From the sequence record OL770107: a stretch of 64,000 nt of DNA; one strand, given 5' to 3'. Below, in pieces: positions 48,255-58,773 of the stretch. The notes under the pieces are model-generated. The model was not told where the DNA came from and ran no database searches. It worked only from the letters and a program-made list of their open reading frames with translations. Numbering within the stretch: the first letter of the stretch is position 1; the number at the start of each line of letters is the position of its first letter. Both the position numbers and the translations under genes were made by a program. The stretch is from Escherichia phage CLB_P2.

Positions 48255-48482
48255 TTAGAACTCTTCTTGCTCTTCGTCATCCATGGATTCTAATTCAGCT
48301 CGTTTACCTGCTAGGGCATCACGAACACTGATATCATCCGAATCTCGAAGTTCAGCTTCTTTACTACGAGTTTTGTAATACTTCTCCAATTCCTTCAAAC
48401 CGTCCATGGTTTGACAAGAACTAATTTTAGACATGAAGCTCTCGATAGAGGCTTCATAGATAACTTCTTTAAAGGACTTCAT
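48255..48482 (-). CDS. UvsW.1-like small acidic protein
   Basis: 75-aa ORF immediately downstream of, and start-overlapping, the uvsW helicase gene. Confidence 0.5.
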   Translation of the reverse strand: MKSFKEVIYEASIESFMSKISSCQTMDGLKELEKYYKTRSKEAELRDSDDISVRDALAGKRAELESMDDEEQEEF

Positions 48483-49975
48483 AAATCCACCTGTTTCATT
48501 ACGTAATTAAATTTCTCGTCAGCATAACGTTGAATACGTTCTAAGGCATGTTTTAATGCATAATTCAAATGAACATATTTCTTTTTAGCATTTGCTGATT
48601 TAGGCTTAACGCCCATGTCGTCTATAATGTCCCAAACTTGTGCTGTTGATTTAGAAGCATGTTTACGGAGCACACGACCTATTGTCTGGAGTACAATGAT
48701 TTTGGATTTTACCGGATGCGCAAATACTACATGGTGAAGGTTCTTAACGGAAATACCGGTAGAGAACACACCGTAACTTGCCACAACAATAATACCCTTA
48801 CCATTTTCCGCCATTACTTTAAGAGCATTACGAGTTTCTGTATTAACTTCACCTGATACGTAATAAACTTCTTTATGTTGCTCTTTAACCATTTCAAAAA
48901 GAGTTTTACCGTGCTCGATGTTTTTAAACATCAGGAATACGTTCTCTTCTTTCTTAGCGAGTTTAACAGCTAAATTAGCAACCCATTTATTACGACGGGT
49001 AGCCTTAGTAATGACTTTAATTTCTGATTGGTAATCTTTACCTTTCATCTTAACAGTGAATTCATCTGGATAACGAAGGAAAATACTGTTTATTTTTAAA
49101 TCAGTGACCTGTCCTTCTTCCATTAACTGTGAAGTGGATACTGGCTTAAACACATCACCAAACAAACCCATATATTGCATTAAATTGGCTTTACCGTCTT
49201 TTAAAGAACCGGACAAACCGAATTTAAACATACAATTGGTAAGGCCTTCGATGATGGTAGAAATTGATTTACCTGTTGCCAAATGGCATTCGTCGTTCAT
49301 AAACATACCAAACTGAGCAAACCATTCTTTAGGTTGTTTAATAGCCGTTTGATAAGTTGAAACATAAATCATTGCATCGGAATCACGAGCAGTACCTGAA
49401 CGAATACCAAGCATAGCAGCTTTAGGGAACAAACGATAATCAATGAAGTCATTAATCATCTGGTCGACAAGTGCAGTAGTAGGAACTAAGATAAGAATTT
49501 TACCTTCATAGTTCTCAACGTAATATCGACTCAGGAGCGCCTGAATCAATGATTTACCTGCAGATGTAGGTAAATTCAGAATTGCACGACGTTTTGTCAG
49601 ACCGTTGTATACGGCTTCATTCTGATACCAATGTGGCTCAATCTTGGTAGAACCTGAATAAATCTCTTGTGAAGCTACCCATGAGTCAAAATCTTCACGT
49701 GAAATATCTTCTTGTTCAAGAATTCGTGGGTCAATCCAAAGAGAGTATTCAAACTGGTCAGCGAATTTTTTAATTTGTGGGACTAGACCATACGGAAGTT
49801 TACGGTTATAATCTAGAAGACGAATTCTCCCATCCCATTGCCCGTAACGGTATTTAGGGTTAAATTTATATCCATCAGCTTCAAAGCTGAAATAGTCTCT
49901 GAGTTCGTAGAAGGTGGATTCATCACACTCAACACGAACATGACTAAAATTATCAAAATGTACTTGAATTTGCAT
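48479..49975 (-). CDS. uvsW: UvsW DNA/RNA helicase
   Basis: 498-aa ORF; Walker A LPTSAGKS, Walker B DECH; N-terminus MQIQVHFDNFSHVRVECDESTFYELRDYFSFEADGYKFNP as in T4 UvsW. Confidence 0.85.
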   Translation of the reverse strand: MQIQVHFDNFSHVRVECDESTFYELRDYFSFEADGYKFNPKYRYGQWDGRIRLLDYNRKLPYGLVPQIKKFADQFEYSLWIDPRILEQEDISREDFDSWVASQEIYSGSTKIEPHWYQNEAVYNGLTKRRAILNLPTSAGKSLIQALLSRYYVENYEGKILILVPTTALVDQMINDFIDYRLFPKAAMLGIRSGTARDSDAMIYVSTYQTAIKQPKEWFAQFGMFMNDECHLATGKSISTIIEGLTNCMFKFGLSGSLKDGKANLMQYMGLFGDVFKPVSTSQLMEEGQVTDLKINSIFLRYPDEFTVKMKGKDYQSEIKVITKATRRNKWVANLAVKLAKKEENVFLMFKNIEHGKTLFEMVKEQHKEVYYVSGEVNTETRNALKVMAENGKGIIVVASYGVFSTGISVKNLHHVVFAHPVKSKIIVLQTIGRVLRKHASKSTAQVWDIIDDMGVKPKSANAKKKYVHLNYALKHALERIQRYADEKFNYVMKQVDL

Positions 49976-49988
49976 GTCTAATTCTCAG

Positions 49989-50010
49989 TTATAAATATAA
50001 TTATATTTAT
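49989..50010. promoter_or_regulatory. divergent late promoters for uvsW and the inh-like gene
   Basis: Plus-strand TATAAATA at about 49989-49996 and minus-strand TATAAATA at about 50003-50010. Confidence 0.45.
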
Positions 50011-50030
50011 ACACCAACAAGAGACTAATT

Positions 50031-50702
50031 ATGGATACTCAATATATTGAAGAGCTTCGTGCACTCGAAGATAAAAAAGAAGCTAAAGCTAAGTTAATCG
50101 AATACGGCGAACAGTTCGGTTTAAAACTTAAGAAAACCCGTTCGTTTGATAATTTGATTATCGATATCTCTGAAGGCCTTAAAGCCCTGGCTGATGAACC
50201 ACTTCCAGAAACCGAAGGTTTGTCTATTTCTGATTTGATTGATGCCGCCGACGAACTCACAGGTGCTAACGAATTTGTTGATGGTGCTGAACCTGCCAAA
50301 GAAGAAGCTACCCTATTATTTGATGCCCCTGAAGCGGTAGTTGAAGTTATTGAGGTAGCCGAACTTCCTAAGGTAGAGATTATTGAAGAAGATGTTCCTT
50401 TTGTCGAAGAGAAATTCAAAGAGGCTGTAGCCGAGGTTATTGAATCTGAAAAACCTGTATTCTCTTTGCCTGAAAACTTTAGTCCTAATCTTTTGCTTAT
50501 TGGTAAAAACCCTGGTTACTGTACTGTTCCTTGGTGGATTTATCAATGGATTTCTGAAACCCCTGATTGGAAAGACCGTCCTAAAGATTTCCAACACCCT
50601 TCTGCCCACCAAACATTATTCAGTCTGATTTATTACATCAATCGTAATGGCTCAGTATTAGTACGTGAAACACGTAATTCATCTTTTGTAACTTTAAAAT
50701 AA
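50031..50702 (+). CDS. inh: Inh-like protein (possible prohead protease inhibitor), positional call
   Basis: 223-aa ORF (T4 Inh about 226 aa) immediately upstream of hoc; acidic N-terminal half; identity by synteny only. Confidence 0.4.
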   Translation: MDTQYIEELRALEDKKEAKAKLIEYGEQFGLKLKKTRSFDNLIIDISEGLKALADEPLPETEGLSISDLIDAADELTGANEFVDGAEPAKEEATLLFDAPEAVVEVIEVAELPKVEIIEEDVPFVEEKFKEAVAEVIESEKPVFSLPENFSPNLLLIGKNPGYCTVPWWIYQWISETPDWKDRPKDFQHPSAHQTLFSLIYYINRNGSVLVRETRNSSFVTLK

Positions 50703-50711
50703 GGGTAAAAT

Positions 50712-52124
50712 ATGGCTTTTACTGTAAGTATAGCCGGCGCTGCGTCTATTAAAATAGGCGAAAGCGCCAACTACACTGCTACCGCAACAGGTGCAGCTGT
50801 AGAAGGAACCGTTACATATGTATGGACCATTGACGGTGCTTCTAATCCGGAGGCAACCAATGTTTTGAGATATACCGGTGCGGCTCCAGCTGGTAAGAAA
50901 GTTTTAAAAGTAGTAGCAACTTCTACTCCGGCCGAAGGCGAACCTGAGGTAGCTGAAAAAACTTTTGAAGTTACCGTAGCTAATAAGACCATGACTATTT
51001 CTTTGGCCTTAGACCCTACTTCCGTTTCTAAAGAAATTGGCCAGTCCCAAGTTGTTACTGCTAACGTGACGGGTGCTCCTGCTGGTGCTACAATTGCTTA
51101 TGTTTGGAAACGTAATACAACTGTAATTTCAGGACAAACTGGTAAAACTATTACTGTAACCGAAGCAGCAGAAGCAAATTACACGTTGAACTGTGAAGTT
51201 ACTGTTACCGCCCCTGAATATGACCCGGGTACCGCTACTAAAGGTGTTGCGGTAACTTTTGTTAAGAAAACTATATCAGGTGCTTCCGTTACTTTAACAC
51301 CAGCCTCAATTAGTACAGAGAAAGGCTCATCTGCACAGTTTAAAGCGGATGTAGTTGGCGCTCCTTCCGGCGTAAATGCAACTTATTCTTGGAAGAAAAA
51401 TGGTTCTATTATTCCAGGCGAAAGCAGTAATATTCTTGCCGTCGATACATCTACAATAGGTTCTTACTCTATTGAAGTTTCGGTACTCCTAAAAGGTACG
51501 GATTATAATGATTTAACCGTTACCAAAACAGGAAGTGTAACAATTACTAAAAAGACTATGGCAGGTGTTTCTGTTAATTTAACGCCTGCTTCTATTACTG
51601 TCTCTGAAGGAATCCCGGCTTCTTTTAAAACCACGGTAGTCGGTGCGCCTAGTGGTGCTACTTTTGCTTATTCTTGGAAGAAAGATGGTTCACCTGTTGT
51701 GGGTGCTACGGATACATTAGTAATTGACACAAGCGCTGAAGGTTCACAGGTTATTGAAGTTTCTGTTGTGGTTTCGGCTACCGACTATAATTCTGTGACC
51801 GTCACAAAATCCGGTAATGTAACAATTACGGCTAAAGTCGCTCCTGAACCAGAGGGCGAACTACCTTACGTTCATCCGCTACCAGTTCGTAATTCAGCTT
51901 ATATTTGGTGTGGTTGGTGGGTTATGGACGAAATTCAGAAAATGACCCTTGAAGGCAAAGACTGGAAAACTGACGAACCTGATAGTGAATATTATCTCCA
52001 TCGTTATACCCTTCAAAAAATGGTAGCCGATTATCCTGAGGTTGATGTACAGGAATCTCGTAATGGTAGAATTATTCACAGAACCGCTTTGGATGCTGGA
52101 ATTATTTACGATTACGTTTATTAA
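50712..52124 (+). CDS. hoc: Hoc capsid decoration protein with four Ig-like repeats
   Basis: 470 aa; four repeats of about 90 aa each with a Y-W-K pattern; C-terminal capsid-binding block IWCGWWVMDEIQKMT...YPEVDVQESRNG as in T4 Hoc. Confidence 0.8.
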   Translation: MAFTVSIAGAASIKIGESANYTATATGAAVEGTVTYVWTIDGASNPEATNVLRYTGAAPAGKKVLKVVATSTPAEGEPEVAEKTFEVTVANKTMTISLALDPTSVSKEIGQSQVVTANVTGAPAGATIAYVWKRNTTVISGQTGKTITVTEAAEANYTLNCEVTVTAPEYDPGTATKGVAVTFVKKTISGASVTLTPASISTEKGSSAQFKADVVGAPSGVNATYSWKKNGSIIPGESSNILAVDTSTIGSYSIEVSVLLKGTDYNDLTVTKTGSVTITKKTMAGVSVNLTPASITVSEGIPASFKTTVVGAPSGATFAYSWKKDGSPVVGATDTLVIDTSAEGSQVIEVSVVVSATDYNSVTVTKSGNVTITAKVAPEPEGELPYVHPLPVRNSAYIWCGWWVMDEIQKMTLEGKDWKTDEPDSEYYLHRYTLQKMVADYPEVDVQESRNGRIIHRTALDAGIIYDYVY

Positions 52125-52128
52125 TAAA

Positions 52129-52148
52129 GGGCCGCAAGGCCCTTATTT
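52129..52148 (+). terminator. terminator after hoc
   Basis: GGGCC-GCAA-GGCCC followed by TTATTT. Confidence 0.55.
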
Positions 52149-52209: not shown

Positions 52210-52389
52210 ATGAAATTTAACAAAGATATAGGGTTGTTGGTTTTCTTTATAGTGCTGTTTTTGTTTTCGTTAATTTCATTAACTAGTGGGTTGTTTGCTT
52301 CTATATTGGCTCTTTTCACATGCATTAGTTCCTTTTTTGGGATAATAGCTACTATAGATAAAATTTTACATACCAAAAAGGGCCCGTAG
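52210..52389 (+). CDS. small hydrophobic protein (59 aa, two predicted TM segments)
   Basis: Below the ORF-track cutoff; MKFNKDIGLLVFFIVLFLFSLISLTSGLFASILALFTCISSFFGIIATIDKILHTKKGP; sits between two terminators. Confidence 0.3.
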   Translation: MKFNKDIGLLVFFIVLFLFSLISLTSGLFASILALFTCISSFFGIIATIDKILHTKKGP

Positions 52390-52405
52390 GCCCTTTATTA
52401 TTTTT
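52376..52405. terminator. bidirectional terminator
   Basis: GGGCC-CGTA-GGCCC flanked by AAAA and TTTATTATTTTT; overlaps stop codons of both convergent ORFs. Confidence 0.6.
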
Positions 52406-53264
52406 CAGGAGGGACGTAAACTAAGTCTTTCCTTTCTAAGATGTAGCCATTTCTCGACTCTTGTATCTCTACTTCAGGATACTTAGACAAAAGGTCGGCT
52501 ACTTTTTGTAACTCACATTTATACTTGTATGGGCTGTTGTTTATATCCAAAGTCCAATCTTCTCCCAATCTAACGGCTTCTCTTATTTCGTCCCATACCC
52601 ACCAACCTATCCACATATACGATTCATTTCTTCCACCGCCATATGGTAAATAAGCATTAAGGTCGTTATCATATATGAAAGGGCACTGCAATACATCATC
52701 CCTAGGTTTTATTTCAACTAAAAGTTCTTCAGAAGCAGGGATATATGCTCCTTCGCAGGTCGCTATAGATTTTAATGTATAATCTCCAAATTTATCAGGG
52801 TCGTCTATTAATATATCAATATCTTCGTCTTTAGATAATTCTACTCCATCTCTATACCATCTACAAATTCTTTCGGCATAAGTGGGTTCCACTCTACACG
52901 ACGGGCGAAGTGAAACTGTTTCTCCTATATTGGCATATATTAATTCCCTAGAGTTTATATCTAGGACTATTCTTCTTGGAAGGGTACCTATTTCAAGTTC
53001 TATTTCGTTACTCTTTGTTATTTCACCACTTTTCTTATTTGTTATGGTCGCATAAAATGTTCCTGCCGCCGGGAATCCTACTTCCCATAAATTTAATTCA
53101 AAAGGGTCTTCGGTAGGAAGTTGTGGAATATGGACATCGTTTTTATACCAATTAATTTCTACATCATCTAGAGTAGAACCGGGTGGTAATACAAACCCGG
53201 TATAAAAGGTTACTGTCCTGCCAACCAATTCATATCTAGGACCATTTATTTTAAGTACAATCAT
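52398..53264 (-). CDS. second Hoc-like Ig-domain protein with Hoc-type capsid-binding C-terminus
   Basis: 288 aa; Ig-like motifs INWYKNDV and CRWYRDGVEL; C-terminal block MWIGWWVWDEIREAV...YPEVEIQESRNG parallels the Hoc tail; AAGGAGG RBS. Confidence 0.6.
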   Translation of the reverse strand: MIVLKINGPRYELVGRTVTFYTGFVLPPGSTLDDVEINWYKNDVHIPQLPTEDPFELNLWEVGFPAAGTFYATITNKKSGEITKSNEIELEIGTLPRRIVLDINSRELIYANIGETVSLRPSCRVEPTYAERICRWYRDGVELSKDEDIDILIDDPDKFGDYTLKSIATCEGAYIPASEELLVEIKPRDDVLQCPFIYDNDLNAYLPYGGGRNESYMWIGWWVWDEIREAVRLGEDWTLDINNSPYKYKCELQKVADLLSKYPEVEIQESRNGYILERKDLVYVPPEK

Positions 53265-53273
53265 TTAACCTCC

Positions 53274-54779
53274 TTAAAACGTGCTCATATTGGTATGGTC
53301 TTCGACAGAAAATAAAACTTCAACAGGGATATCTGTAGTCGTATTAAGAGGGCCGCCTACAATAAACACAGATACAGTGTAGTATTTTCTAGTATCACGG
53401 TCAAATATTTCGTAACGGTTAAATTGTCTTGCACTAGAATAAGCCAAATCGTCGAATAATTCAGGAGATGATGACCACAACACATTACTCCAGTTGGCAC
53501 ATTCTATTCCGTTTTCATAGTTGGTAAATCTTTTAATATCAAGCCTATTAGTAAGACCTGCATTAGTAGCCCTTATATGGATGCCTACAGATGAGTACAT
53601 GCGAACATGAAGAACCATATTAAGGTCCCACAAACGTATTTCCTTCCACTCTGAAGTGTTCAGAGGCTTATCAAATCTTAAAGAGCCTTTCCAATATCTA
53701 GGTGGATAGAATGGGAAAAGTTTATCATATAAAGATTTTAATTGAGACTGGGTTAAAGAATCGACATCAAATACTGCATCTTTGCCTGGCGCACCTGCAG
53801 GACCTATAGGACCTTGAATACCTTGAGGACCTTGATCGCCTTTTTCACCTTTAGGTCCTGGATTACCTTGTGGACCCTGCGGCCCTTGAGCACCGGGCGC
53901 GCCATCTTCTCCTGGATATCCAGGTCTTCCTTCTTGTACAAACAAATGCCAATAATCAACCCATAGGTCTCCACGGCCTGGATAACTATCATTATTTGCT
54001 ATATTGTCCTGAATACAAATCCAAGAAGACCCTTCGCACTGGACTAAATCATTTACATAATAAGGTGTGCCAGGGTCCCAGTTTCCGGCCCAGATAAACC
54101 CATTACCATCTTGGCCTGGCGCGCCTTGTGGACCTTGAGGGCCGGTTGGGCCTGTTGGTCCTTGAGGACCTGGTGCACCGATATTAGCCAATAGCGCCCA
54201 AACTCCTTCGCTAGGAGGTATTGTTCCTGTATTAGAACTGATGCAAAAATAAGAAGCTCCCTGGTATCCAACTGCATCGTCTTTAGAGTATTGGGTAGAT
54301 TCATCCCAGGCTCCCTTCCACACCAAACCTGCCGGGCCTATAGGACCTTGTGGTCCTTGCGGTCCTACTTCTCCTTGGGCCCCTTGTAAACCCTGAGGGC
54401 CTTCTTTTCCTGGTGAACCCGGGTCTCCTTTAGGACCTTCTGGACCTGCTGGTCCTGGTTCGCCCTTTTCTCCTTTAGGACCCGGGTTACCTTGAATACC
54501 TTGCGGCCCTGGGTCTCCTTTAGGGCCTTGTGGACCTTCAGTACCAGGTGTTAGCATCTCATTAGTTATACCTAAATGGGCCAACGCGCCTTCCCTAGAA
54601 GCTTGTTTTATAAATTCAAGTCCATAACTTTGAGAAGAATCCAACATAGTAGGGTCTAAGGTGCTTTCACTAGTGAGTATGTCTGCAAATTCCAATGATT
54701 TATCCTGCGGAACTTCTACTAATGATACGCCTCTAAAGTGACCTCTACCGTCATGCCCGTATAATGGATTGTCTGACAT
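53274..54779 (-). CDS. collagen-like triple-helix repeat protein with Trp/Tyr-rich interspersed modules
   Basis: 501 aa; three Gly-X-Y blocks (about 24, 9 and 17 triplets) separated by two 50-aa modules (W.GAWD...Y..D.V.Y.G..Y.C...P....W); 180-aa C-terminal globular region. Confidence 0.8.
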
Positions 54780-55175: not shown

Positions 55176-56183
55176 ATGTTCAAGAAATATAGCAGTCTGG
55201 AAAACCACTACAACAGTAAGTTTATCGAAAAACTCCGTACCAATGGTTTGACTGGTGGTGAATGGGTAGCACGTGAGAAGATTCACGGAACCAACTTTAG
55301 TTTAATCATAGAACGTGACGCAGTCACATGCGCCAAGCGCACTGGCCCAATTCTCCCTGCCGAAGATTTCTATGGCTATGAAATTGTACTTAAGAACTAT
55401 GCTGATTCTATTAAATCTGTTCAACATCTAATCGAATCCATTAATTATCAGTCATATCAAATTTATGGCGAGTTCGCTGGTACAGGTATCCAGAAGAATG
55501 TGGATTATGGCGATAAAGACTTTTATGTATTTGATATCCGTGTTACTAAAGAAGATGGTACCGAATCCGTTTTAACTGATACCCTTATGGAAGCTTTCTG
55601 TATTATTCATAAGTTTAAGGTTGCTCCGTGCTTAGCCACAGGTAGCTTTGAAGACCTTATTAAACTGCCGAATGATTTTGATTCTGTTATCCCAGATTAC
55701 AATTTTGCAGTGGATAACGCAGGTTTAACCATTGCTAACTCAACCGATTTTATTCCTAAGGTCGAAGGTAAAGTATTTACGGCTGAAGGCTTTGTACTGA
55801 AACCTGATGTTCCTATCTGGCTGCCTAATGGAAATCGTGTAGCAATTAAATGCAAGAACTCTAAATTCAGCGAGAAGAAAAAGTCTGATAAGCCTATTAA
55901 GGCCGCAGTAATATTGTCCCAAGACGATATGGACTTGATGTGGCAATTCACCGATTATGTGACTGTTAACCGTATTAACAACGTTATCAGTAAGATTGGT
56001 GAAGTATCACCTAAAGATTTTGGAAAGGTAATGGGACTGACGGTCCAAGATATTTTGGAAGAGGCAGCCCGCGAAGAATTAGAATTAACCGATGCAGAAA
56101 ACCCTGTTGAAGTTAAAAAGCAGCTTATCGAGTGCGTTAAAGATACGCTACGAGCTGTGTGGATTGAATTAGTATCCAAATAA
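55176..56183 (+). CDS. rnlB: RNA ligase 2
   Basis: 335-aa ORF; adenylation lysine motif [10 protein letters not shown]; near-identical to T4 Rnl2 over the N-terminal 90 aa and C-terminal region. Confidence 0.9.
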
Positions 56184-56187
56184 ACAA

Positions 56188-56218
56188 TAAAGGGACCTTA
56201 CGGTCCCTTTTATTTTTC
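56188..56218. terminator. bidirectional terminator between rnlB and the head gene operon
   Basis: AGGGACC-TTAC-GGTCCCT flanked by A- and T-runs. Confidence 0.6.
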
Positions 56219-57490
56219 TAGTGGTGGAAGTTTAACACCGAGATAAGAACTCAACTGACTTTGATTAGCCATTTTGTCCATATCCGAACCATCAATAATG
56301 CGAGCTTCTTTATCGTCCTTAGCGACGGTATAAGGGTTTGCAGTCAATGCATAACGAGCAAGCAATGCTACTGTAGGTTGTAAGCTTTCCGGGTCAACAA
56401 TAACCTTAAATTCACCTACTGAAGTATCACCTTCTTCATCAACCACATCCAAACCTTCCGTATAAGGCGCATAATATAAAGATGCGACCGTCTGTCCTTC
56501 ACCCATCTGAGCATTTACACCAACAATAACATAATCACATGGACTATTCATATCGGCATAAAGAGGTAGACCATTCTTTAATACACCATAAGCCAATTCA
56601 TCTTGGTCTTCCTTTTTCTCAACCCAACCGGAAGCGGCGAGAATAGCAGCACAACGAGAACTAGCTACTGCATAAGTCCCAGCGAAAGAAGTTTGACGTT
56701 GGACGGCAGAGTTCATCTCACACATGTAATAATATAATGTACGAGCACGGTCCTGGGCATTATCATAACGTGGGTTAGTAAGGTCCAATACGCCCTTTTC
56801 AGAAACACCTTGGACTTTAAAACGAGAACTCACCGTAATTAATGACTGTAATACGTCCTTATTAATTTCTTCTGCCATTTGAATGCCTAGCAGATTTTCA
56901 ATGAAATTAGGAGCATTAAATCCGTTTGATTCTAGGTCTTGGGCCAATTCGACTGTCAACGAAGTTTTCAGTTTACGTGATTTAACTTCAGATTGCCATT
57001 TGTCAATACGGAAGCCTGCTTCAGCAATTTCAGGATGGCCTTGTTCGAATTTAGAAGTAATAGCAGCATCTGATACCATACGAATATGTCCGGCCGCCAC
57101 TGCTTCAGAAATAACTTCACCGAGGTCGGTTTCCGTGGTTCCGGCGAAAGGAGATGCTTCTAGAACTTTAAACACTACACTTTCAAACTGGAACATATCG
57201 CCGGCTGCATAAGCTGTAGACGAATCGGTAAATTCAGGAATATTTTCACGTTCCGACATACCAATCTGACCTGCAAATGTGGCGCCACCAAGATAAGTCA
57301 TTTTGTCGTCAGGATTAAGTACACGAACCCCGTACAGAGCGGCCACAGGTTGGCTTGTTTTTTGTTCAGCAACTAGGGCTTTAAAGATTCGTTTATTAGT
57401 TGCTTGGGTGTATGAAAGAAGAGCAGGACGGCCAACCGAGTTGGCAGCCGTCAATGTGGATTCTTTAATTAGGTCTATAATCTTAGACAT
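56210..57490 (-). CDS. gp24-like head vertex protein, diverged paralog
   Basis: 426 aa; about half of positions shared with the upstream gp24, incl. RKLKTSLTVELAQDLESNGF, INKDVLQSLITVS, YAPYTEGLD and LTANPYTVAKDDKEARIID. Confidence 0.8.
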   Translation of the reverse strand: MSKIIDLIKESTLTAANSVGRPALLSYTQATNKRIFKALVAEQKTSQPVAALYGVRVLNPDDKMTYLGGATFAGQIGMSERENIPEFTDSSTAYAAGDMFQFESVVFKVLEASPFAGTTETDLGEVISEAVAAGHIRMVSDAAITSKFEQGHPEIAEAGFRIDKWQSEVKSRKLKTSLTVELAQDLESNGFNAPNFIENLLGIQMAEEINKDVLQSLITVSSRFKVQGVSEKGVLDLTNPRYDNAQDRARTLYYYMCEMNSAVQRQTSFAGTYAVASSRCAAILAASGWVEKKEDQDELAYGVLKNGLPLYADMNSPCDYVIVGVNAQMGEGQTVASLYYAPYTEGLDVVDEEGDTSVGEFKVIVDPESLQPTVALLARYALTANPYTVAKDDKEARIIDGSDMDKMANQSQLSSYLGVKLPPLEK

Positions 57491-58773
57491 TAATCAGCCT
57501 CGTAAATAATTGCTGGAAGTTTAACACCAAGCAGATAGGACATATTACTCTGACCGGCCATTAAATCCATATTGGTTGCATCGATAACACGAGCTTCTTT
57601 ATCGTCTTTAGCTACGGTGTACGGGTTAGCGGACAGTGCATAACGAACCATCAGAGAAATAGAAGGCTGTAATGAATCCGGGTCGACAATAACCTTATAA
57701 GCACCAACGTGTTCTTGGTCGTCTAAATCCAGGCCTTCTGTATATGGGGCGTAGAAAATAGAACCGACAACTTCATTACCACCATAGTTCTCTTTAACAC
57801 CTACGATAACATAATCCAATGGGCTGTTAACGTCGCAGAACAGAGGTAATCCATTCAACAAATAACCATAGGCCGTTTCTGGGAGCCAATTATTATCTTC
57901 AGGTCTATGTTTTAACCAGCCAGAACCTGCAAGCATTGCAGCCACACGACTTGAAGCCACAACAAACGTACCTGAATAAGAAGTAGTTTTCTGGATTTCA
58001 GAATTCATCTCACAAACAATTTCATAAAGTTTACGTGCAGATTCTGGAGCACTATCATAAGTCAAATCGATGATGCCATTATCAGATACACCCGTAACTT
58101 TATAGCGTTTGGATACGGTTATTAGAGATTGCAGAACATCTTTATTAATTTCATCTGCCATTACCGTAGCCAGGAGGTCTTCTAAGAATGCAGGGGCGTC
58201 GAAGCCATTTGATTCCATATCCTGTGCTAATTCTACGGTCAAAGCAGTCTTCAATTTACGGGTCTTAACAGGGGCATTCCATTTATTAACCTGGAATACA
58301 GCATCAGAGATTTCTACATCACTCTCTTCAAATTTAGTGGTATGGGCTGCATCAGGAACCAAACGACACGTTAATGACACCAAACCTTCTTGAAGAGCAT
58401 CGGCCAATTCTGTAGCGCTAGTGGATGCGAGTGGGCTTGCTTGAAGAGCCTTATAAACCACATTCTGATACTTAAAGTAGTCACCCTTGGCAATCGCCTG
58501 GGCTTTATCTGTGAGTTCCGGGATAGTTTCACGGTCTTTAGAACCAACTTCACCACCATAAACTGCACCGGTTTGGAAACTGAATTCATTATCAGGGGTA
58601 AGATATTTGACACCATACAACGCAGCGATAGGTTGGTTTGTACGTTGTTCAGCGATGATATCGCGATAAATTAGTTTAGTGGTAGCACGGGTCAAAGCAA
58701 CAAGATTAGGGCGACCCAATGAGTTGCTGGTAGTAGTTGTTGACTCGCGCAGTAATTCGTTAATCTTTGCCAT
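57490..58773 (-). CDS. 24: head vertex protein gp24
   Basis: 427-aa ORF (T4 gp24 427 aa); N-terminus MAKINELLRESTTTTSNSLGRPNLVALTRATTKLIY nearly identical to T4 gp24. Confidence 0.9.
   Translation of the reverse strand: MAKINELLRESTTTTSNSLGRPNLVALTRATTKLIYRDIIAEQRTNQPIAALYGVKYLTPDNEFSFQTGAVYGGEVGSKDRETIPELTDKAQAIAKGDYFKYQNVVYKALQASPLASTSATELADALQEGLVSLTCRLVPDAAHTTKFEESDVEISDAVFQVNKWNAPVKTRKLKTALTVELAQDMESNGFDAPAFLEDLLATVMADEINKDVLQSLITVSKRYKVTGVSDNGIIDLTYDSAPESARKLYEIVCEMNSEIQKTTSYSGTFVVASSRVAAMLAGSGWLKHRPEDNNWLPETAYGYLLNGLPLFCDVNSPLDYVIVGVKENYGGNEVVGSIFYAPYTEGLDLDDQEHVGAYKVIVDPDSLQPSISLMVRYALSANPYTVAKDDKEARVIDATNMDLMAGQSNMSYLLGVKLPAIIYEAD

Follow-up and report, generated by a model that had tools for sequence, protein, structure and literature searches.

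Of the phage decoration fibres, Hoc is the best studied. In T4-type phages each gp23 hexamer of the mature capsid carries one Hoc monomer at its centre, capsid assembly does not need Hoc, and T4-like Hoc proteins are acidic, with a pI of about 4-5. We analyzed the hoc locus of Escherichia phage CLB_P2 in a stretch of 64,000 nucleotides (sequence record OL770107), the whole of which is referred to here as the window.

The hoc gene lies at 50712..52124 on the plus strand; it starts with ATG, encodes 470 aa and includes its stop codon at 52122-52124. Its start is located 9 nt past the stop of inh, with an AAGGG ribosome-binding site ahead of it. The inh gene (50031..50702, plus strand), directly upstream of hoc, encodes the inhibitor of the prohead protease gp21 (223 aa); it matches PHROG family phrog_1051 (a phrog_1049-type match) with E = 9.2e-91, and the corresponding genes of dhaeg, JS10 and T4 carry the inh annotation. 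A sequence match to the T4-type late promoter consensus, TATAAATA, is found at 49990..49997 on the plus strand, with 33 nt between it and the start of inh. Chance alone would give 6.5 matches to this consensus in the window, which contains 13, and the site is probably the promoter of an inh-hoc late transcript, the two genes being probably co-transcribed. On the other side of hoc, 2 nt past its stop, a GC-rich hairpin, AAGGGCCGCAAGGCCCTT, with a T-rich tail gives a terminator-like sequence match at 52127..52144 (plus strand).

The gene order uvsW / inh / hoc / rnlB is T4-like, hoc of such phages following inh directly between uvsW and rnlB / gene 24: uvsW occupies 48479-49975 (Pfam UvsW_N, E = 2e-43) and a 335-aa ORF at 55176-56183 occupies the rnlB position. 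A second Hoc-like gene, encoding 288 aa, is located at 52398..53264 on the minus strand and is convergent to hoc. A collagen/CBM5_12 protein is encoded at 53274-54779. The idea that it carries a Hoc-type capsid-binding domain was considered and dropped: neither its Pfam matches nor the best 25 in PHROG, which are tail-fibre families, include a Hoc family.

T4 Hoc (5vf3_Z) matches the 470-aa protein with E = 1.7e-114 in phmmer, and the PHROG 'Hoc-like head decoration' family phrog_1149 does so with E = 2.6e-123, phrog_21694 being matched as well. The window is 100% identical to the sequence of Dhakavirus CLBP2, and the hoc genes of dhaeg and dhabil, which are annotated as 'head outer capsid protein', are 96% identical to that of CLB_P2. 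The calculated pI of the protein is 4.99, with a charge of -11 at pH 7, and the same calculation gives a pI of 4.74 for T4 Hoc. As judged from sequence, the open reading frame is genuine and encodes the Hoc of a Dhakavirus (T4-like, Straboviridae); the identification as a 470-aa Hoc, made in an earlier sequence-only reading of this DNA, is borne out by the T4 Hoc and PHROG matches and by the inh-hoc position. Among the papers searched, none dealt with JS10, JS98 and hoc, and none held relevant text that links Inh with Hoc.

Modular architecture of Hoc

Hoc is composed of four modules and a C-terminal domain, all encoded on the plus strand. D1 (50712..50981, aa 1-90), at the distal tip, is the orthologue of T4 domain 1 (42% identity). 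D2 (50982..51263, aa 91-184) belongs to a distinct type common to the Hocs of Klebsiella phages (73-76%); it sits at the position of T4 domain 2, yet it is 31% identical to that domain. D3 (51264..51548, aa 185-279), matched by Pfam Ig_3, is the 'extra' module and also the sole basic one, with a pI of 8.2. D4 (51549..51833, aa 280-374), matched by Pfam I-set, is capsid-proximal and orthologous to T4 domain 3 (57%). The alpha/beta capsid-binding domain follows at 51834..52121 (aa 375-470).

This division is carried by several lines of evidence. The AlphaFold2 model (pLDDT 88.4) displays four separate 7-strand beta-sandwich modules, bounded at aa 4-90, 97-184, 192-279 and 287-373, and then the alpha/beta C-terminal domain; the pLDDT of the modules is mostly above 90, block values across residues 91-374 are 88-97, and all segments stay at 50 or above. 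At the DNA level, seeded direct repeats define a family with a GAPxGxxxxYxWK core spaced at 282, 285 and 285 nt, and in the protein the linker motif [NK]KT[MI] at aa 91, 185 and 280 delimits modules of 90, 94, 95 and 95 aa. Similarity between modules reaches z = 4.5-26 against shuffled controls, the highest value (z = 26) being that of D3 versus D4. Pfam recognizes D4 as I-set (PF07679, aa 290-342), with 31.6 bits at a gathering cut-off of 23.7, and D3 as Ig_3 (PF13927, aa 193-255), with 31.1 bits at a cut-off of 30; at E <= 0.1 it matches neither D1 nor D2, which are called Ig-like on the predicted structure and on internal similarity. Foldseek matches of the model include four- and five-Ig strings, as well as the RB49 Hoc (3shs, E = 5e-11). 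Whole-model TM-scores are low (0.16-0.32) because inter-domain angles differ among beads-on-a-string proteins, and E-values and the kind of match were used instead. Tandem Repeats Finder reported no array between 50600 and 52300; the modules are too diverged for this program, so that the repeat is demonstrated by direct repeats, protein comparison and structure prediction.

Four Ig-like modules in this Hoc, as opposed to three in T4, are thereby confirmed. The sequence-only reading had proposed four tandem modules of about 90 aa, which agrees with the module lengths and with the model, and one module more than in T4: in fact the T4 alignment leaves about 90 aa unmatched. The length that it gave for T4 Hoc, about 376 aa, is correct (376 aa), and the conserved tail that it placed after the modules is identical to T4 Hoc 282-376 at 82 of 95 positions (86%). 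The motifs on which it relied stand in a looser form than given. TYxWK occurs exactly once (aa 224), whereas [AT]YxW[KT] is present once per module, at aa 35, 129, 224 and 319, module 1 carrying TYVWT instead of the WK form; similarly ATDYN, attributed to three modules, is exact once (aa 356), TDYN is found twice and the loose [TP][DE]Y[ND] three times. Parsing by Ig profiles, also suggested there, is insufficient with Pfam alone, which finds two of the four modules, and AlphaFold2 gives all four.

Origin of the additional module and module turnover

D3 and D4 are 58% identical in amino acids and 62% in nucleotides; their identical residues use the same codon in 27 of 55 cases and synonymous sites have largely diverged. 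The repeat-by-repeat comparison that had been proposed to date the duplication consequently points away from a recent event. In a neighbour-joining tree of modules, built without bootstrap and unable to tell independent duplications from gene conversion, D3 forms its own clade within the T4-D3-type class and T4 domain 2 is alone. D2 is about equally far from every T4 module (24-38%). D3 orthologues of at least 80% amino acid identity are found in only 15 phage records, and those of at least 90% in 14. By homology, D3 is an old copy of the capsid-proximal module of T4-D3 type that has since diverged, and these comparisons give the module order as follows: D1 is of T4-D1 type, D2 of a type of its own, and D3 and D4 both of T4-D3 type, ahead of the C-terminal domain.

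Alignment with the whole T4 protein could be taken to mean that the inserted module is D2 and that D3 is the true orthologue of T4 domain 2. In fact phmmer places query residues 1-105 on T4 1-106 and 194-468 on T4 100-375 (E = 1.9e-98), bringing D3 opposite T4 domain 2, MAFFT likewise sets D3 against it, and an insertion at Lys109-Glu209 is described for the Klebsiella phage PMBT63 (PMC13435897). However, D3 is closer to T4 domain 3 (52% aa, z = 24) than to T4 domain 2 (32%, z = 11), the module tree places it in the class from which T4 domain 2 stands apart, and the module gained or lost within the genus is D3, so we consider this assignment unlikely. A recent tandem duplication specific to CLB_P2, or a repeat assembly artefact, would account for modules in tandem of nearly equal length (94-95 aa), but the divergence of even the closest pair, D3/D4, the silence of Tandem Repeats Finder, the full-length four-module gene in 10 independent phage records, including JS10 (EU863409), and the 14 records with close D3 orthologues leave it hardly any probability; it was rejected on the D3/D4 divergence and on the independent records. 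Equally improbable is a protein of three Ig-like domains with a long linker or disordered insert, an outcome that the sequence-only reading had itself envisaged. Pfam does match two regions only, within aa 193-258 and 290-342, and the T4 alignment simply leaves about 90 aa unpaired, but the four confidently modelled modules, followed by the capsid-binding domain, contradict it, the GAPxGxxxxYxW core recurs at regular spacing in all four units, and D2 is conserved as a unit in other Hocs (73-78%); on these grounds the three-domain structure was rejected too.

The reading of D3 as an old copy of the capsid-proximal module can be compared with the Hocs already known. T4 Hoc (NP_049793, 376 aa; PDB 5vf3, 8t1x) is also an acidic Ig-like string encoded downstream of inh, and in both proteins [NK]KT[MQ] linkers join the modules; the CLB_P2 protein differs in having a second and diverged module of the T4 domain-3 type, and in the distant module at position 2. 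Dhakavirus orthologues of this protein in JS10, dhaeg, dhabil and IME341 have 469-472 aa and carry the annotation hoc or head outer capsid protein; at 79-97% amino acid identity they keep the same four-module order, and their differences are only allelic or mosaic. Beyond the genus, PMBT63 (2026) has a four-Ig Hoc-like protein of 468 aa (P0046; PMC13435897), 68% identical to CLB_P2 Hoc and with the same module order, and Hocs of Klebsiella and Salmonella phages are related to it. In PMBT63 and the Klebsiella-phage Hocs, however, the proximal pair of modules resemble each other at about 77%, where the CLB_P2 pair has 58%; the two are nearer to each other than to either CLB_P2 module, and they were either duplicated separately or homogenised. 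Serratia phage Muldoon (10 Ig, 1174 aa), PNJ-9 (two Ig; PMC11853027) and RB49 follow the same plan, a number of Ig-like modules and then one capsid-binding domain, but with other module numbers and sequences, RB49 being matched at the fold level only. Among the best 120 homolog clusters, 87 have four-Ig Hocs, and in 127 representatives the N-terminal lengths step by about 94 aa.

Within the genus Dhakavirus, alleles of three, four and five modules differ by exact 285-nt units. The three-Ig Hocs of EcWhh-1 (375 aa), IME08 (377 aa) and VR20 (377 aa) share D1, D2, D4 and the C-terminal domain with CLB_P2 and differ by the absence of the 285-nt D3 unit, exactly this unit being missing in EcWhh-1 and IME08; EcWhh-1 is 92-96% identical to CLB_P2 in the amino acids of D1 and D2 and 86% in D4. 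The five-Ig alleles (563-565 aa) have one extra copy of D2, as in the 565-aa allele, where D2 is duplicated. The ends of the indels fall within the repeated linker junction. In dhaeg an exact 15-nt run, CAGGTGTTTCTGTTA, is common to both junctions; in CLB_P2 the two junctions match at 39 of 51 nt and the longest exact in-register run is just 6 nt, so a tendency of this allele to lose modules is not evident. Moreover, identity to CLB_P2 hoc varies along the gene: dhaeg is 100% identical in D4 and the C-terminal domain and 92-93% in D1-D2, JS10 is 99% identical in D1 and more distant in D4 and the C-terminal domain (84-86%), and IME341 has 56% nucleotide identity in D1 and 98% in the C-terminal domain. 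By these identities hoc is mosaic, its segments having differing histories. Both the mosaic and the indel ends in the repeated linker fit in-frame recombination as the route by which modules may be gained and lost; the exchange would take place between the stretches of linker and first strand, alike from module to module (KKT[MI]xG[AV]SVxLTPxSI), with which each module opens.

Predicted capsid docking and fibre reach, and a second Hoc-like protein

In T4 Hoc the highly conserved Tyr293, His295, Trp309 and Trp310 contact gp23, together with Tyr304, Trp306, Gln354 and Tyr360 (PMC10385173). Seven of these eight residues (Y293, H295, Y304, W306, W309, W310 and Q354) are kept in CLB_P2 as Y386, H388, Y397, W399, W402, W403 and Q447, and the only change is Y360 to Arg453. 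AlphaFold2 predicts the elements E387-389, E395-398, H402-413, H428-440, E446-448 and E453-456 in this domain, where confidence is lower (block means 64-77).

For capsid binding, occupancy, fibre length and adhesion of CLB_P2 Hoc we infer a behaviour like that of T4. Each gp23 hexamer would receive one monomer, docked at its centre through the conserved C-terminal domain, and from there the four Ig-like modules would extend outward in a roughly linear, acidic fibre, which could adhere weakly to glycans or cell surfaces and help to keep particles dispersed. That module number sets the reach of the fibre is a reasonable inference: the four-domain T4 fibre reaches about 180 Å (PMC10385173), and an extra module of about 45 Å would extend this to roughly 220 Å. 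Taken as a whole, the account of a four-Ig Dhakavirus Hoc fibre with T4-like docking, an old D3 copy and module turnover by in-frame recombination is very probably right.

The four-Ig Hoc is correct but ordinary, because Hocs of one to ten or more modules, those of four included, have already been described. Hocs with 1-10 Ig domains and two-Hoc phages are published (Fokine 2023; PMC10385173), and variation in domain number is documented (PMC10385173, PMC13435897, PMC11853027). A small useful point is that the extra module is an old, basic paralogue of the capsid-proximal one. The 285-nt module alleles within one genus, the linker-repeat ends and the mosaic hoc offer a concrete view of fibre-length evolution, and the alleles of three, four and five modules are natural material for studying how fibre length and module content affect adhesion to mucin or cells; such adhesion tests would be relevant to phage therapy and to the engineering of T4 display.

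In its AlphaFold2 model (pLDDT 83.2), the 288-aa protein encoded convergently to hoc has a pair of beta-sandwich modules and a capsid-binding domain of Hoc type. Over the 71 C-terminal residues it shares 46% identity with Hoc (E = 6e-18), it matches phrog_1149 with E = 6.2e-43, and JS10, dhaeg and IME08 have counterparts labelled as a second hoc. It is a possible competitor or partner of Hoc at the same capsid sites. A stronger proposal is that it takes the hexamer sites and that the 470-aa Hoc is displaced from them, in part or entirely, or serves elsewhere. Of the eight T4 contacts, six are identical in the 288-aa protein (Y304, W306, W309, W310, Q354, Y360), and the Tyr at T4 position 360, Arg in the 470-aa Hoc, is among them; T4 Y293 also maps to a Tyr, in a part of the model with pLDDT below 50, and His295 falls in a gap. 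Moreover, all four combinations of a three-Ig or four-Ig Hoc with or without the second protein are present among relatives. On the other hand, the C-terminal domain of the 470-aa Hoc is far nearer to that of T4 (86% against about 46%), its gene lies in the canonical, putatively late inh-hoc operon, and the two-Hoc phages known so far are interpreted as displaying both proteins (PMC10385173), which makes displacement of the 470-aa Hoc improbable.

The T4-like account could be extended to a two-tier coat in which the four-Ig Hoc, of about 220 Å, and the two-Ig Hoc-like protein share or partition the gp23 hexamers, with a linker-repeat switch that might produce fibres of three, four and five modules at appreciable frequency in phage populations. 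We regard this extension as unlikely; if true, fibre length and the basic D3 would be tunable to the mucosal or host-surface environment.

Structure of the hoc gene and its product

The hoc gene, which encodes a T4-like head-decoration protein (the long Hoc), is a real open reading frame of 470 aa at 50712-52124 (+); it starts 9 nt past the stop of the upstream gene, is preceded by an AAGGG ribosome-binding site and is followed by a GC-rich hairpin 2 nt 3' of its stop codon. The gene is 100% identical to that of Dhakavirus CLBP2 (OZ035781.1, an unannotated record) and 96% identical to the genes annotated 'head outer capsid protein' in Escherichia phages dhaeg and dhabil. The product matches the PHROGs family 'Hoc-like head decoration' (E = 2.6e-123) and, in a phmmer search of PDB sequences, T4 Hoc (E = 1.7e-114); residues 1-105 align with T4 1-106 and 194-468 with T4 100-375, leaving about 90 residues without a T4 counterpart.

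Gene order around hoc agrees with the T4 layout: uvsW (48479-49975, -; Pfam UvsW_N, E = 2e-43) is followed by inh, encoding the prohead-protease inhibitor Inh (50031-50702, +; phrog_1051, E = 9e-91), then by hoc and, beyond it, by a 335-aa ORF at the position at which relatives annotate rnlB. Ahead of inh, at a distance of 33 nt, the sequence matches the T4 late-promoter consensus, TATAAATA. The genes uvsW and inh diverge, and the 55 nt that separate them hold two TATAAATA matches in opposite orientation, at 49990-49997 (+) and 50004-50011 (-).

The sequence-only reading had proposed four tandem Ig-like modules against three in T4 Hoc, whose length it gave as about 376 aa. The T4 protein indeed has 376 aa, and four modules are confirmed by direct repeats sharing the core GAPxGxxxxYxWK, present in four copies spaced 282/285/285 nt, and by an AlphaFold2 model (44-sequence alignment, mean pLDDT 88.4) that contains four separate 7-strand beta modules (aa 4-90, 97-184, 192-279 and 287-373) and then an alpha/beta domain (aa 387-466); the interpretation is supported. 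When the model was searched against the PDB with Foldseek, the hits were RB49 Hoc (3shs, E = 5e-11) and multi-Ig proteins, Dscam1 and Sidekick, with four or five such domains in a row. Of the four units, Pfam Ig profiles recognised just two, the third (Ig_3 at aa 193-255) and the fourth (I-set at aa 290-342), and none was detected in the first two, so the profile scan alone could not settle the module count; Tandem Repeats Finder reported no repeat in hoc because the copies are too diverged. The motif counts needed slight correction: TYxWK, said to be in each module, occurs once in its exact form and once per module as the looser [AT]YxW[KT], and ATDYN, said to be in three modules, is found once in full, against two occurrences of TDYN and three of the loose pattern [TP][DE]Y[ND].

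With borders set by the linker motif [NK]KT[MI] at aa 91, 185 and 280, the modules are D1 (aa 1-90), D2 (aa 91-184), D3 (aa 185-279) and the capsid-proximal D4 (aa 280-374), followed by the capsid-binding C-domain (aa 375-470). The long Hoc is acidic (pI 4.99), as is T4 Hoc. D3 (51264-51548, +) is the sole basic module (pI 8.2) of an otherwise acidic fibre.

Origin of the extra module and allelic variation

Judged by sequence comparison, the extra module is D3, an old paralogue of the capsid-proximal module, and a recent duplication is excluded because of D3-D4 identity, the module tree, codon use and the spread of orthologues. D3 and D4 are 58% identical in amino acids (z against shuffles 26) and 62% in DNA, with the same codon at only 27 of 55 identical residues. 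Both resemble T4 domain 3 (D3 52%, z 24; D4 57%, z 26), and D3 matches T4 domain 2 at 32% (z 11); D2 against T4 domain 2 gives 31% (z 11) and D1 against T4 domain 1 gives 42% (z 18). When the modules of 12 Hocs were placed in a neighbour-joining tree, built without bootstrap support, the D3 modules of CLBP2, JS10 and IME341 form their own long-branched clade within the T4-domain-3 class, and T4 domain 2 stands on its own. Orthologues of D3 at >=80% amino acid identity were found in only 15 of 50,697 phage records; these are followed, at 58-64%, by proximal modules from Klebsiella phages, Cronobacter phages and further Dhakavirus Hocs, and then by T4 (52%). The gap in a naive T4 alignment falls at D2 and would make D2 the inserted module, which is misleading on homology, D3 being of the T4-domain-3 type.

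Among Dhakavirus relatives, EcWhh-1 Hoc (375 aa) and IME08 Hoc (377 aa) consist of D1, D2, D4 and the C-domain, with precisely D3 missing, and a 565-aa allele has D2 twice, the copies being 72% identical. That EcWhh-1 lacks D3 could be taken for the state before the duplication; this is rejected since the D2 modules of EcWhh-1 and CLBP2 are 96% identical, against only 58% between D3 and D4, and the absence is read from these identities as a later loss or replacement.

In DNA alignment, alleles with three and four Ig-like modules (3-Ig and 4-Ig) differ by exactly 285 nt, and the ends of this indel fall within AA(R)AA(R)ACTAT.. CAGGTG.TTC.GTTA.TTTAAC, the opening sequence of every proximal module. 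In dhaeg the two junctions have the exact 15-mer CAGGTGTTTCTGTTA in common; in CLBP2 they match at 39 of 51 positions, and no exact run exceeds 6 nt. Identity to CLBP2 also jumps abruptly along hoc, as in a recombination mosaic within the genus: dhaeg is 100% identical in D4 and the C-domain and 92-93% in D1-D2, JS10 99% in D1 and 84-86% in D4 and the C-domain, the latter at 84%, and IME341 98% in the C-domain and 56% in D1. The exact 285-nt units, the position of the indel ends in a repeated junction and the mosaic identity support, without proving, exchange, gain and loss of modules by in-frame recombination within and between hoc alleles, be it homologous or mediated by short stretches of homology.

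Variation in module number, the four-Ig form included, is already known, and a deposited genome contains the identical sequence. In Fokine et al. 2023 (PMC10385173), strings of Ig-like domains are reported for about 650 Hoc homologues, 10 such domains for the Hoc of phage Muldoon, and two Hoc-like proteins for some phages. A two-Ig Hoc has also been described (Fu et al. 2024, PMC11853027), as has the four-Ig Hoc of Klebsiella phage PMBT63, of 468 aa and with one Ig-like domain more than T4 (Ewertz et al. 2026, PMC13435897), which is 68% identical to the long Hoc. The long Hoc's 120 best homolog clusters (90% identity) comprise 87 of 465-475 aa, 29 of 370-380 aa and 4 of 560-570 aa. A HMMER scan of 1.84 billion representatives with the C-domain as query found 132 proteins, in a series running to about 15 units: 16 representatives have one unit, 43 two, 21 three, 6 four and 3 five.

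Predicted capsid binding and the second Hoc-like protein

The C-domain is identical to that of T4 at 82 of 95 positions and keeps seven of the eight reported gp23-contact residues (Y293, H295, Y304, W306, W309, W310 and Q354, T4 numbering); the eighth, Y360, is Arg453. The same replacement is seen in the other Dhakavirus Hocs aligned. By analogy with T4 (PMC10385173), one long-Hoc monomer would stand at the centre of each gp23 hexamer as an extended acidic fibre with a reach of roughly 220 A, since the four-domain T4 fibre reaches about 180 A; it may likewise adhere weakly to glycans or to the surface of bacteria and help disperse particles.

A second Hoc-like protein, Hoc2 (288 aa), is encoded at 52398-53264 (-), convergent with hoc; two such proteins per phage have been described for other phages (PMC10385173). 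Hoc2 matches the Hoc PHROG (E = 6e-43) and resembles Hoc in the C-terminal domain only (46% identity across 71 aa; E = 6e-18). It is strongly acidic (pI 4.5), and its AF2 model (nine-sequence alignment, pLDDT 83.2) has beta-sandwich modules at aa 3-93 and 100-187, then an alpha/beta domain at aa 198-281. Six of the eight T4 contact residues are identical (Y304, W306, W309, W310, Q354 and Y360), position 360 thus being Tyr as in T4 and unlike the Arg of the long Hoc; Y293 corresponds to Y208, within a stretch at pLDDT <50, and H295 to an alignment gap. All four combinations occur among relatives: 4-Ig Hoc with Hoc2 (dhaeg, JS10) or without it (IME341), and 3-Ig Hoc with Hoc2 (IME08) or without it (EcWhh-1). 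The JS10 copy of Hoc2 is only 50% identical, and both hoc genes are annotated in that record (EU863409).

Neighbouring genes

The C-terminal 60 or so residues of Inh (aa 158-216) resemble the Hoc capsid-binding domain, with the common pattern WW..I...DWK...E(S/T)RN; a profile made from Hoc C-domains scores 20.5 bits against Inh in seven phages including T4, and the similarity is also detected with phrog_1149 (E = 7.7e-5) and BLASTP (E = 0.006). This resemblance suggests that the adjacent genes inh and hoc have a capsid-binding module in common; no paper stating this was found in the literature searched.

Both hoc and the second hoc end in a GC-rich hairpin, and the stretch between the two hairpins contains an unannotated, very hydrophobic 59-aa ORF (52210-52389, +; MKFNKDIGLLVFFIVLFLFSLISLTSGLFASILALFTCISSFFGIIATIDKILHTKKGP). 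This ORF, which has the ribosome-binding site AGGTGG, matches no PHROG, and nothing is annotated at this place in dhaeg. Adjoining the second hoc, at 53274-54779 (-), a gene with a local GC of 0.49-0.52, against about 0.37 around it, encodes 501 aa; the product combines four collagen triple-helix stretches with two CBM_5_12 carbohydrate-binding modules, and its best PHROG is a 'tail fiber protein' family. The gene is absent from this locus in EcWhh-1 and IME341 and lies elsewhere in IME08. Finally, ORFs of 426 aa (56210-57490, -) and 427 aa (57490-58773, -) lie side by side upstream of the ORF, 519 aa long, that occupies the gp23 position. To go by their location and by relatives' annotation, they look like a vertex-protein gene duplicated in tandem: IME341 has two consecutive 'gp24 head vertex protein' genes there, and JS10 names a '24b'.
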